A stretch of 52,139 nucleotides of DNA from Escherichia coli (lineage in GTDB: Bacteria > Pseudomonadota > Gammaproteobacteria > Enterobacterales > Enterobacteriaceae), in the NCBI RefSeq assembly GCF_003334405.1, contig NZ_QOWM01000022.1; one strand, 5' to 3'. Positions 43,501-49,500 of the stretch are shown here, piece after piece. The stretch's first letter is position 1. Each line of letters begins with the position of its first letter. A program made the position numbers.

Positions 43501-46500
43501 TTCGGGTACGGGATTATCCCATCACTCTGGATAAGCTGCTCGATAAGCTGCCGGATGTGGTTTAAGGAGGAACAATGTCATACCCGCTTTTTGACAAAGA
43601 CGAACACTGGCATAAGCCAGAGCAGGCGTTTCTCACCGATGACCACCGGACCATTCTGCGCTTCGCCGTAGAGGCGCTAATGTCCGGTAAAGGAGCGGTG
43701 CTGGTGACGCTGGTGGAGATACGCGGCGGCGCGGCGCGCCCGCTCGGGGCGCAGATGGTGGTGCGCGAAGATGGTCGTTACTGCGGTTTTGTCTCTGGCG
43801 GCTGCGTGGAGGCCGCTGCCGCTTTTGAAGCGCTGGAGATGATGGGCTCAGGCCGCGATCGCGAAATTCGCTATGGCGAAGGTTCGCCGTGGTTTGACAT
43901 CGTTCTGCCCTGCGGCGGTGGGATCACGCTGACGCTCCATAAACTACGCTCGGCACAGCCTCTGCTCGCCGTGCTGAACCGCCTGGAACAGAGAAAACCG
44001 GTGGGGCTGCGCTACGATCCGCAAGCACAATCGCTGGTGTGCCTGCCCACGCAAACCCGGACGGGCTGGAATCTCAATGGCTTTGAGGTGGGGTTCAGGC
44101 CATGCGTCAGGCTGATGATTTACGGACGTTCTCTTGAGGCGCAGGCAACCGCGAGTCTTGCAGCAGCCACAGGCTATGACAGCCATATCTTCGATCTTTT
44201 TCCGGCCTCAGCCAGCGCTCAGATCGATACCGATACGGCGGTCATTTTGCTGTGCCATGATCTCAACCGGGAGCTGCCAGTGTTGCAGGCCGCGCGAGAA
44301 GCAAAACCCTTTTATCTCGGCGCATTGGGCAGCTATCGAACCCACACGTTACGTCTGCAAAAGCTCCACGAGCTGGGATGGTCCAGGGAGGAAACAACGC
44401 AAATCCGGGCACCCGTCGGGATATTCCCCAAAGCCCGGGATGCGCATACTCTGGCACTCTCCGTGCTGGCAGAAGTCGCCTCTGTACGTCTCCATCAGGA
44501 GGAGGATTCATGCCTGCCCCCGTCGTCCTGATCCTTGCGGCCGGGCGTGGAGAGCGCTTTCTCGCCTCCGGGGGAAATACCCATAAGTGTATCGGCTGGC
44601 GTCAGTCCCCGGAGGTTGCGCCTTATCGCTGGCCATTTGAAGAAAACGGGAGAACTTTCGACCTTGCGATTGAACCGCAGATTACGACTAATGATCTGCG
44701 TCTGATGTTGAGGCTGGCTCTTGCCGGCGGAGGAATAACAATTGCCACTCAGGAAACTTTCAGGCCATATATTGAAAGCGGTAAGCTTGTATCGCTGCTT
44801 GATGACTTTCTTCCACAATTTCCGGGCTTCTATCTGTATTTCCCACAGCGTCGCAATATTGCACCAAAGCTCCGCGCCCTGATTGACTACGTCAAAGAAT
44901 GGCGGCAGCAATTGGCTTAAATGTCTGCACCTGCACTGCCTGATGTCAGAACAGTATTTTGATGAATTGCCAAGGTTACAATGGCACAAATACGGCACAG
45001 GAGGAAACGTGGTGTATTTAAATATGGGGTAACTCTTTGATTTTAATGGTGCCGATAATAGGAGTCGAACCTACGACCTTCGCATTACGAATTATAAGAA
45101 TCCGTTTCTAATTCAAAGTATTACCCCATCAACACTGCGCTCACACGTCCCACCACATCAAAACATGTAAAGCCTTGCAAGCCATTGTGAGGCCTTATGT
45201 GTCTCAGTTTTGTCCCACCTTGTATTATGACTTGCATAGCCAATGAAGATAAATGTGACGACAAACGGCGCAGCAGTCTTCTTTTCCTTCATACTTTCCC
45301 CACCCAGCATGCATACCTTCTACCATAACTGTAGTTAATGTCTGTTATGAGCGAGGAGCGGACATTGCTAACAGCGTTCTGTGCGAATCAAGCAGGTCAG
45401 TCAAATAATTTATCGTCTGCCTCATAAGTTTCCTGAAACGTGAGGCTATTTGCATTAGGAACTGGATCATCTGCGTGTTGAATAATGGTTTGGCTTTTTA
45501 AAATGCTTTGCTTGAAAAAGCGTTTGCAAATTATCTCACCGTTAACTGGAAGCCAATGCGTGGCCTCTGGAAATAGCGTAGAATTTATAGGGTTTTCCGC
45601 GTTTGGGTTATGAAAAATTTCAATTTCTGAAGTCCATGGCTCATAACTATAGGGTTCCCAAAGACGACGATATTGGTCACTGGCTACATCCATACTGAAG
45701 GGGATGCCACGTAAGGCTCCCGCCGAGTCATTAGCGAACTCACCAATCCTTATGTACCGGTAGCCTTTGATCAAGGCGCCGGAAGAAACAGGTACTCTGC
45801 TCAGCTTGGATAAAGTCGCAGAATTAGAAAAAATAACCGCCGAGAGAGCAATGTTATCGTGTGAATTAAACAAACCAGCACGGATTTTGGGGTCGCTTTT
45901 GAGGCAGTCGACAGTTTCTGCTACAGCCACAACCTTCCCATCTATTTCTTTTTCTCTTCCATAAAATCCATAGAGATAGGTAATTAGAGCCTCACGGCTC
46001 CACATCATTGAACCGGGAGCGTGAAAGTCCGCGATAGCAATGGCAAACGGCTTTCCTTCGACATGAGTGAGACTAGTGTAATTCTTGCGCAGTTTATTCC
46101 TTAGGGTCCGCGCATAACGTTCAGCCGCAATTCCCGATACCCTGTCTTGTCGGTTTAAAGGAAACGTCAGAGGTTCAGCCCTGGCATGGTCGTAACGGTC
46201 CGATGGATTAACTGTCACAGCTTCAATCCAGGCTTCTCCACCTGACCTGTTTATTACGTGAAAATCAGGAGAGGGGTACTCCTGAGTGACTAACAACCCC
46301 TGTTCACGGAAACTGGCCAGGAGCATGGCTTCCCAAATACGTGTATGAAAGTTATCAGTCTGGCACTCTCTTGCCCAGTGAGTATCCGGATTTGGCATTG
46401 CAAGATACAATTGATTAAGCATCCATGCGCCAGGTGCTCTACAAGGATGTCCAAGTAGTTTGAATATGTTACTTGGTTGTCTACCTTCAACATCCCAAAG

Positions 46501-49500
46501 CGGTGCGCGCCTGCGTGTACCCGGAGGCAAAGGGACGCGACTCGCAGATTCATCGCATGCCTCACGTATAATTGTGAAAGCCTCTTCTTCACTATATGAA
46601 TCTGACTCCCAGCGTAGCACTGCCCATACATCGTCCTCACGACGCCGCATTATAAGAATGCCATGCTTTCCGCTGTGACAATTACGTGTCAGTGCACAGA
46701 CTGTGACATGATCATGACTACCCCAAGCGCTAACTGGAGGATCATCCCCAAATCCCAGACCTCGGGGAAGCGATAAGGCATATACATCGAATACACAAGA
46801 CGGAATGGGAGTCATCGAAAAGTCTCACTTAATGAGCCTAAAGATAGCGGCAAGCAGACCATAAAAGACCGGTCCATAAGTAGGTACCTTCTGCATTCGT
46901 TAGCGATTTTTTGACTTTGCTAGCAGTCAAACCCAACAATTAACTCTTCAGTAATCTCACTTAAGGAGACTATGCCTTTATATCCAGTTTCAACGTATGG
47001 GACCACCCTATCACTCCATGCCTCTTCTGCTTTCCATGCAGTCCAGGGGATCAATTTATCGAATTTGCTTTCATGAAGAAATAGTATTGAAATTCTATCA
47101 TTAGGCACATGTTTTATAAACTGAGTTGGAAAACATTTATAGGCATGTTCTTCCCAATGCTTAGTCCCATAACATCTGTAGTCAAAAAAGGAAACACAGT
47201 TACGCCGTCTGAAAAAACCATTTGATGAGTTTCCAAATCTTGACATCTGCAATAATTCCGAGTTTGGGATCAAAGCGCCGGACTGTTTTATGAGAGACAT
47301 ATTATTTTCAGGCGTAACATGGAACACTCTTCCTAAAAGAGCAGGTAATATATCATTGTGAGATATGATTTTGAGTTGACTGACTTTCATATATCTTGAC
47401 CATCGAAATATGGATTAGTGCAATACGTTAACATAGCATAATGTCACTAGCGTCTCCTATTGGCACATAGCAGTCCTAGAGACACTGGCGTAAAGCCATG
47501 GAGGATCGGTGGGAGGAGGCGCTAATCCTTTCATACAAAAAATATGTAAAATCAATAACGGCTGTAAATCATTCAATACTCGCCCTATCGGAAGTTCACC
47601 AGCCAACCGCAGCACGTTCTTGCATACGACGTGGCTGCGGTTTCAACTCCCGCCAGCTCCACCAATCATGATTGGACGGTGTAAGGACAACACCAACAAA
47701 AACAGGAAGTTAGCAGTCTCAGCAGGACACCGACCAGACGGTGAGGAGACAAAAAAGGATACGCAAAGGAGCCGCGGCTCTCGAGTGACACAAAAGCCCG
47801 CTTATGCGGGCTTTTTGTTTTTCCCTTAAGTTCCTAGCCGCTTATCTATAACTATGGAAAAATGTTAACCCTGACTGTATGTTAACAAAGGGATGTATAT
47901 GTCGGTTTTTCATAACTGGCTGCTTGATATCGCAAGCGGGAATTACTTTATCTACATCAAACGCCTTTCTGCAAACGACACAGGCGCAACAGGTGGCCAT
48001 CAGGTCGGACTTTATATCCCCTCAAATATCGTTGAAAAGCTTTTTCCATCTATCAATCATACTCGCGAACTGAACCCTTCAGTCTTCCTTACTGCGCATG
48101 TATCATCCCATGATTGCCCTGATACCCAAGCACGCGCAATTTATTACAACAACCGTTATTTTGGTAAGACCCGAAACGAAAAAAGAATTACGCGCTGGGG
48201 GAGAGGAAGTCCATTACAGAACCCTGAAAATACAGGAGCCCTCACAATTCTTGCTTTCAGGTTAAACGAACAGAACACTGACTGTTCCGAGGTAGATATA
48301 TGGGTCTGCGTCAATCCCGATGAAGAGGATATCATCGAGTCTGCTATTGGCGAAATCATACCTGGAACCCTAATTTCCGGCCCTGCCGGACAAATTTTGG
48401 GCGGATTGTCTCTTCAGCAAACTCCAGTAAATCATAAATATGTTATTCCTGAAGACTGGAAGAAGCGTTTTCCTTCTGGAAACGAAATTATTCAATATGC
48501 TGCTGGCCATTATGCTAAAAACTCCAAGGATCCAGATGAGCAACTGATTGACCGTCGGCGTGTCGAGTATGATATTTTTCTACTCGTCGAGGAATTACAT
48601 GTTCTTGATATTATTAAGAAAGGATTCGATTCTGTAGATGAGTTTATTGCATTAGCCAACTCTGTCAGTAATCGACGTAAATCAAGGGCAGGCAAATCAC
48701 TTGAACTTCACCTAGAGAAGCTTTTTATCGAGCACGGACTACGGCATTTCTCCACTCAGGCAGTTACTGAAGGTAATAAAAAACCAGATTTCCTGTTTCC
48801 TTCAGCAGAGGCATATCATAACGTTGAATTTCCTGTAGAAAACTTACGTATGCTGGCAGTAAAGACCACCTGCAAAGATCGCTGGCGTCAGATACTGAAT
48901 GAAGCAGATAAAATCCATCAGGTACATTTATTTACACTGCAAGAAGGTGTTTCTTCAGCACAATACCGAGAAATGAAAGATGCGGGTGTCAGACTCGTTG
49001 TACCATCAACTTTACATAAAAAATACCCAGAAGCAGTTAGAGAAGAATTAATAACGCTCGGAGCATTCATTACTGAGCTGATAGAGCTTTACGCTGAACT
49101 ATCATAGGCTGACTCCCGGCTTAAAAGGCCGGGAGATGTTCTCAAGGCTGCCCAGTCTTACCAGCATCAGCAGAAACAGCTTTGAGGATATAGGGTTCCA
49201 GAAGTCTGGCAACAGCTTCAAATACTGGCACCACAACTGAGTTACCGAACTGCCGATATGACTGAGTATCTGAAACCGGAATACGGAATGGTTTCCCTCC
49301 AGGTTTTTCAAATCCCATAAGGCGTGCGCACTCTCGGGGAGTCAGCCTGCGTGGTCGACGAGCCTGATTACTCTCATTCATAAAGTCAGCCTCTCCCGTT
49401 GCCATATCCCAACCACGATCAATAAGAATTTCTGATCCGTCTTTGTGATATCTGGCAGAAAGTGTGCGTGCAATGCTTTCCTTATTCTCAGGATTGACCA

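Follow-up and report, generated by a model that had tools for sequence, protein, structure and literature searches.

PD-T7-1 and PD-T7-5 came from a functional selection applied to the E. coli pangenome, where each was cloned as a single coding sequence (CDS) and labelled 'nuclease' (PMC9519451). PD-T7-1 is the single-gene anti-phage system of E. coli ECOR46 (Vassallo et al. 2022, Nat Microbiol; PMC9519451). It confers protection in E. coli against T7, with a stronger effect on T-even phages, and its activity against a Teseptimavirus was independently confirmed (PMC12409345). PD-T7-5 is also a single gene, with a product of ~390 amino acids (aa) (PMC9519451). The gene described here is located at 45397..46815 (minus strand, stop codon included, ATG start at 46813-46815) in a 52,139-nucleotide stretch of E. 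coli DNA (contig NZ_QOWM01000022.1 of assembly GCF_003334405.1), which is referred to as the window. It encodes a protein of 472 aa and lies downstream of a gene encoding 156 aa; the two are called the large and the small gene. The first-pass annotation of the window presented the 472-aa product as the large partner of a candidate two-gene system. We propose, with a probability of about 0.72, that the large gene belongs to the PD-T7-1 family and encodes a nuclease that acts on its own in anti-phage defence.

The large protein was matched by the PADLOC hidden Markov model (HMM) of PD-T7-1 with 232 bits (E 2.8e-69) across residues 113-446, equivalent to profile positions 120-447 of 452 (coverage ~71-73%). 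The N-terminus was left unaligned because the N-terminal domain has diverged. The PD-T7-5 HMM gave 120 bits (E 2.6e-35, residues 129-417). The 449-aa protein of phage mEp460, which was used as a reference because the PD-T7-1 HMM spans it completely (521 bits), shares 29% identity with the large protein across residues 110-445. When the clade of the window protein was aligned as a profile with 20 PD-T7-1-type proteins in hhalign, the match had a probability of 100% (E 6e-75) over 442 columns and covered residues 1-450, and Foldseek gave template modelling (TM) scores of 0.77-0.83 to family members of 445-460 aa, including a 449-aa E. coli protein. Since both comparisons take in the whole protein, the N-terminal domain is common to the window clade and the PD-T7-1 proteins, only more diverged. 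The first-pass annotation had made no family assignment, which can now be replaced by PD-T7-1 on the profile match and hhalign; it still holds for NCBIfam and for Pfam, where the 472-aa protein matched no family even at E<=10, and 30 of its relatives likewise had no match in either database. A PDB sequence search with the large and small families returned only a chance match to WASP (E 0.15), and the sole result of a PHROGs search was the unnamed family phrog_8571.

The large protein and PD-T7-1 have a three-domain architecture, a similar length (472 and 449 aa), full-length profile homology and a common fold, together with identical invariant E/D/E/K and HNP residues. Neither has a Pfam family, and both are found in cargo slots of prophages or defence islands. 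They differ in that their identity is 22-29%, with a diverged N-terminal domain and an activity that would be extrapolated to this clade, and in that the window clade consists of proteins of ~465-480 aa from Gamma-, Beta- and Alphaproteobacteria. The window gene is also packaged with a gene of ADP-ribosyltransferase (ART) fold, unlike PD-T7-1.

An exhaustive profile search of the family, with clusters counted at 50% identity, gave 1427 clusters at E<=1e-3, 333 of which were at E<=1e-30. Two architectures were found, one full-length (~445-480 aa) and one core-only (~340-390 aa), the latter being the PD-T7-5 type. PD-T7-5-type proteins have the nuclease core and C-terminal domain in common with the large protein and lack its N-terminal domain; with this domain present, and with 120 bits to PD-T7-5 against 232 bits to PD-T7-1, the large protein does not group with PD-T7-5. 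Its clade forms one 50% cluster with the next relatives 38-45% identical, and it is a distinct, divergent branch of PD-T7-1. Most of the family members in UniProt (AFDB50 matches) are named 'glycosaminoglycan attachment site/protein'. This name was rejected as a functional clue, as in our judgement it is a label apparently propagated from a pattern match.

The open reading frame (ORF) of 472 codons, running from ATG to stop at 45397-46815 (-), is real, as the first-pass annotation had read it. More than 120 homologues with 51-93% identity cover 96-100% of the protein length, so the ORF is not a chance one; they were found in Pantoea, Yersinia, Burkholderia, Cupriavidus, Dyella, Stenotrophomonas, Xanthomonas, Pseudomonas and other genera. 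The RefSeq protein WP_000934335.1 (341 aa) contains only the last 341 codons of this ORF, starting from M132 (46420-46422, minus strand). This start was rejected because the N-terminus is conserved and confidently folded in the model. In an alignment of 42 sequences, many columns before residue 132 were invariant (F9, A13, L14, P17, G19, W31, R57, R58, D61 and W64), and residues 1-90 of the AlphaFold model had a predicted local distance difference test (pLDDT) of 94-98. UniProt also holds an identical 472-aa E. coli entry. As the N-terminus is conserved across Proteobacteria and confidently modelled, and as full-length homologues and the identical entry exist, the 472-aa form is the genuine product and the RefSeq call is too short. 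A side effect of the 341-aa call is that copies in which the true N-terminus is cut by the insertion sequence IS3 are still listed as intact. The annotation was also right that the protein has no P-loop, no canonical helix-turn-helix (HTH) and no transmembrane segments: the Walker A motif is absent, no HTH is recognisable since there was no Pfam match at E<=10, and the highest 19-residue Kyte-Doolittle mean is only 1.02.

The model of the large protein (pLDDT 90.8, predicted TM score 0.91) contains, in order, an N-terminal sheet-plus-helix domain, a helical segment, a nuclease core and a beta-rich C-terminal domain. The N-terminal alpha/beta domain (residues 1-~95; 46531..46815, minus strand), with four strands and two helices at a pLDDT of 94-98, is homologous to the PD-T7-1-type N-domain and absent from the short PD-T7-5-type relatives; it may regulate or sense. 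From model and alignment, residues ~140-265 (46021..46398, minus strand) are predicted to form a metal-dependent PD-(D/E)xK-type nuclease, with a helix at 156-171, strands at 175-177, 185-188 and 194-202, a helix at 229-242 and a strand at 257-263. Residues ~270-447 (45475..46008, minus strand) make up the C-terminal domain, which is family-specific. A superfamily alignment of 30 sequences, comprising the window clade, PD-T7-1 proper and PD-T7-5-type proteins, showed D144, R159, E162, P183, D184, E198, A199, K241, G283, F316, S325, R340, E392, N403 and P404 to be invariant. The residues from G283 onwards belong to the C-terminal domain, in which E392 and the HNP motif (H402-N403-P404) form a conserved patch.

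Two stretches had been picked out in the first-pass annotation as a possible PD-(D/E)xK-like core, and they fared differently. The first, PDFHVINRSGGEAWIEAVT (PDFHV...IEAVT), starts at residue 183 and is supported as the catalytic core by the PD-T7-1 membership and by the invariance of P183-D184 and E198. The second, KPFAIAIADFH, starts at residue 255 and corresponds to core strand 4; its D263 varies across the superfamily and was rejected as a catalytic residue, which it is unlikely to be for that reason. On the points that the annotation had named for checking such a core, namely profile-profile search, structure prediction and conserved acidic residues among homologues, hhalign linked the protein to the PD-T7-1 family, the model contains a core that matches known nucleases, and E162, D184 and E198 are invariant.

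Among solved structures, the model matched the CdiA-CT of Burkholderia pseudomallei 1026b (4G6V, 119 residues aligned, score 7.4), the CdiA-CT of EC869 (5.1), HindIII (5.0) and PaqCI (4.6). CdiA-CT 1026b is a Mg2+-dependent PD-(D/E)xK tRNase with E187, D214, D223 and K242 (PMC9086364), and it is 16% identical to the large protein. We therefore propose that the active site could consist of E162 (codon 46330..46332), D184 (46264..46266), E198 (46222..46224) and K241 (46093..46095), all on the minus strand, because these residues are invariant and occur in the same order as those of CdiA-CT 1026b. E162 is located in the first core helix and is a candidate metal ligand, D184 is the 'PD' aspartate at the start of strand 2, and E198 lies in the 'E-A-V-T' of core strand 3. 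As the position +2 after E198 is a valine, the invariant lysine K241, whose placement on the helix after strand 3 would be that of K242 in CdiA-CT 1026b, could replace the +2 lysine and is the candidate catalytic lysine. These four residues, together with the E392/H402-N403-P404 patch, are the candidates for mutagenesis. CdiA-CT 1026b differs from the large protein in being a delivered inter-bacterial toxin of 132 residues without the N- and C-terminal domains. It is accompanied by an immunity protein, whereas the large-gene loci show no conserved immunity gene.

The large gene is part of a compact defence island. In the window, paoABCD (39728-44531) is followed by a fragment of a LysR-type gene and then by a low-GC stretch, which is the distal part of a ~12-kb island, as seen from an identical region in strain PSJ-23, where the island ends with a tyrosine integrase beside tRNA-Thr. 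In the window, the island is bounded by an att remnant at 45047..45092, 46 nt that duplicate the 3' portion of tRNA-Thr (thrW) and are identical to thrW at the island's far end in PSJ-23. This remnant is located 305 bp past the stop codon of the large gene, in line with the ~300 bp given in the first-pass annotation. The cargo then runs from the large gene through the small gene to an EcoRII-type restriction endonuclease (47893-49107, plus strand), a Dcm-type methyltransferase (49142-50617, minus strand) and a GIY-YIG protein (50982-51755, plus strand) with a full-length PD-T4-3 match of 463 bits. It is because of these last three genes that the att end is described as a defence island. We read the island as the remnant of a prophage integrated at thrW, with the large gene carried at its att end as cargo next to PD-T4-3 and the EcoRII-type restriction-modification pair. 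What lies between the LysR fragment and the endonuclease varies: other E. coli strains have different genes in this cargo slot, for example AbiTii and DUF6650 or a 'capsid protein'. When 44900-47900 was compared with E. coli genomes by megablast, matches were near-universal at a median of 4 places per genome, which is probably the tRNA-Thr fragment. An ARAGORN search of the window was negative for tRNA and tmRNA. An Rfam scan of 44500-52139 gave nothing in or beside the large and small genes; it did give a full-length IS009 (RF02111) at 51868-52066 on the minus strand, with 229.5 bits against a gathering score of 117, which overlaps ORFs on both strands.

The large gene was present in 10 of 5426 complete E. 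coli genomes. Half of these copies carry an insertion sequence, which is IS3 at ~codon 23 in four and IS911 at ~codon 268 in one, and the small gene is intact in all five of these genomes. The interrupted copies include those of E. coli NRZ106056 (locus L091, 3377-4539) and CH4799 (locus L092, 2622-3790), the latter being the IS911 case. The IS3-interrupted copies keep the part from M132 onwards and resemble the PD-T7-5 architecture. Fragmented copies were also found in Enterobacter cancerogenus and in some Pantoea allii. Among phages, P2-like and lambdoid ones have relatives of the large gene. PD-T7-1 proper in mEp460 (locus L017, 2629-3978) and the window cassette in a Qin prophage (locus L007, 8050-10043) occupy one and the same slot, with the hok/mok-rem genes on one side and the replication-gene side on the other; distant family members swap in this single cargo position. 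In Burkholderia cepacia (locus L003, 6653-10662), the homologue adjoins a 695-aa OLD/TOPRIM ATPase and a 641-aa UvrD-type helicase, which are Gabija-like by domain content. A relative from Sphingomonas aurantiaca (46% identity; locus L068, 3905-6220) has a C-terminal ParB-like fusion in a 771-aa ORF (UniProt A0A2T5GRZ6, 739 aa), and a second ParB-like gene follows it.

On infection, the product would act as a single-polypeptide endonuclease that most likely cuts nucleic acid and so blocks phage multiplication. A defence role of this kind is supported by the PD-T4-3 and EcoRII-type neighbours, by the OLD-type ATPase and UvrD helicase in Burkholderia, by the phage-borne relatives and by the rarity of the gene in E. 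coli. Several points weigh against it. At 22-29%, identity to validated PD-T7-1 is low, so that a defence phenotype in this clade is extrapolated. No Pfam nuclease family matched either the large protein or any of the 30 relatives, and the published HHpred support for PD-T7-1 is weak, a match to Hjc with 80% probability at residues 177-219, a region that maps to the stretch of the first motif. D184 and E198 are invariant, but the +2 position carries V200 rather than the canonical lysine, and the best solved structural match is a tRNase. Finally, no promoter can be recognised in the 104 nt that separate the large gene from the small gene, and transcription of the large gene may depend on the upstream gene in the cassette that the two form.

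The tRNase match bears on the substrate, for which phage DNA is, in our estimate, about an even bet. DNA is favoured because most enzymes with a PD-(D/E)xK fold are DNases, because, of the 11 nuclease-type systems that the original screen yielded, 7 conferred direct immunity, and because the ParB-like fusion in Sphingomonas points to DNA; restriction enzymes are also among the structural matches. RNA is a live alternative, since the nearest solved structure is a tRNase and PD-T7-1 works best on T-even phages with heavily modified DNA. With the same family and fold, the protein would then be an abortive-infection tRNase or RNase that stops translation in infected cells. This is consistent with the cleavage of tRNA-Ala by CdiA-CT 1026b, with the lysine on the helix after strand 3 in both proteins, with the resistance of modified T-even DNA to many DNases and with an abortive mode in 12 of the 21 systems from that screen. 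The texts consulted do not say whether PD-T7-1 is abortive, its mode being shown in a figure only, and overall we consider an RNA target unlikely, although it is the most credible of the alternatives. We regard it as very improbable that the large gene has no defence role and does no more than resemble PD-T7-1, being decaying or selfish cargo, for instance an inactive relic or a nuclease of homing or repair type. The IS3 and IS911 insertions in five of the ten E. coli copies, the fragmented copies in E. cancerogenus and P. allii and the extrapolated phenotype of the clade would fit such cargo. The window copy, however, is intact with all superfamily-invariant residues present, and full-length conservation at 50-93% identity across Proteobacteria argues for purifying selection. 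The gene occupies prophage cargo slots among defence genes, and frequent loss is typical of costly defence genes.

The small gene (46920..47390, minus strand) was modelled with a pLDDT of 93 and has an ART fold, which is DarT-like. Its structural matches were to DarT proteins (8.4, 7.8, 7.4 and 7.1), heat-labile enterotoxin and pertussis toxin (~7), Tpt1 (6.5-6.7) and PARPs (~5). H24, the stretch S67-F-F-D-Y71 and E134 are invariant in its family, and H24, the Y71 region and E134 could form an H-Y-E-type triad. No family was found for the small protein in Pfam, NCBIfam, the PDB or PADLOC (the last also with six relatives), and a tblastn search of phage genomes gave nothing. The two genes form a cassette of 2.13 kb (45340..47471, minus strand). 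It has one boundary at a hairpin-like repeat (GTCCGCT...AGCGGAC) shortly after the stop codon of the large gene, and the other lies 81 nt upstream of the small gene. With these same boundaries, the cassette recurs in the Qin prophage (locus L007, 7993-10124), where it sits between hokD and a DUF977 gene, and in P. allii (locus L010, 3829-5971), which together with the thrW island makes three contexts unrelated to one another.

An obligate system of these two genes in one operon, in which the DarT-like protein would be a toxin with the nuclease as its neutraliser, or a modifier with the nuclease as reader, is improbable. It is suggested by the common strand, by a spacer without promoter-like or terminator-like sites, by the small gene accompanying the large one in each of the 10 E. 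coli genomes that have it and by a pair that keeps its end points at the thrW island, the Qin prophage and P. allii (92% nucleotide identity). In E. coli and P. allii the physical linkage is real. In a scan of one genome per species, none of 70 large-gene loci had a match to the small-family HMM within 4 kb, and all six positive controls were recovered. Clustering of the flanking ORFs at these loci gave no conserved neighbour, as no family occurred in more than 11 of them, and the upstream ORFs of P. ananatis (134 aa), Burkholderia (143 aa) and Xanthomonas (445 aa) were rejected as cryptic homologues of the small gene, having no BLASTP similarity to it. In Pantoea agglomerans, the large gene (74% identity) is solitary between opposite-strand genes. 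Without the large gene, the small gene is found in 10 other E. coli genomes, where it lies at the end of an e14-like prophage, and, next to different genes, in Morganella, Citrobacter and Thiodiazotropha. It also remains intact where the large gene is broken, by IS911 in CH4799 or by frameshifts in P. allii, which disfavours the large protein as its antitoxin. A DarTG-type arrangement does not fit either: the small protein resembles DarT in fold only, with no sequence-level match, and DarTG has a macrodomain antitoxin, which the large protein lacks by Pfam, and the pair is not co-conserved. The GC contents of the two genes (46.8% and 37.6%) are 9 points apart, and PD-T7-1 works as a single gene (PMC9519451).

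On these grounds, the large partner proposed in the first-pass annotation is not supported as one half of an obligate pair. From genomic comparison, the large gene appears to be a self-sufficient unit like PD-T7-1, given the 70 loci that lack the small gene, the lack of a conserved neighbour, the solitary copy in P. agglomerans and the occurrence of the small gene alone. We conclude that the cassette brings together two cargo genes that became neighbours recently and possibly share one promoter. Within it, the ART could conceivably mark phage DNA or RNA, or consume NAD+, on infection, with the nuclease acting on the mark or being licensed by it. We find such coupling improbable, but if true it would be a new two-component defence from an undescribed ART family without a DarG-type antidote. 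The small gene, which has no sequence family, is in any case the more novel and less explained of the two.

As a new and divergent addition to an already validated defence family, the large gene is a fairly ordinary find that does not change the understanding of defence systems. For annotation, the gain is that a 'hypothetical protein', shortened to 341 aa in RefSeq, can be assigned in full length to a family with experimentally validated defence. PD-T7-1 and PD-T7-5 have one core in common, with or without an N-terminal domain, in ~1,400 clusters at 50% identity.

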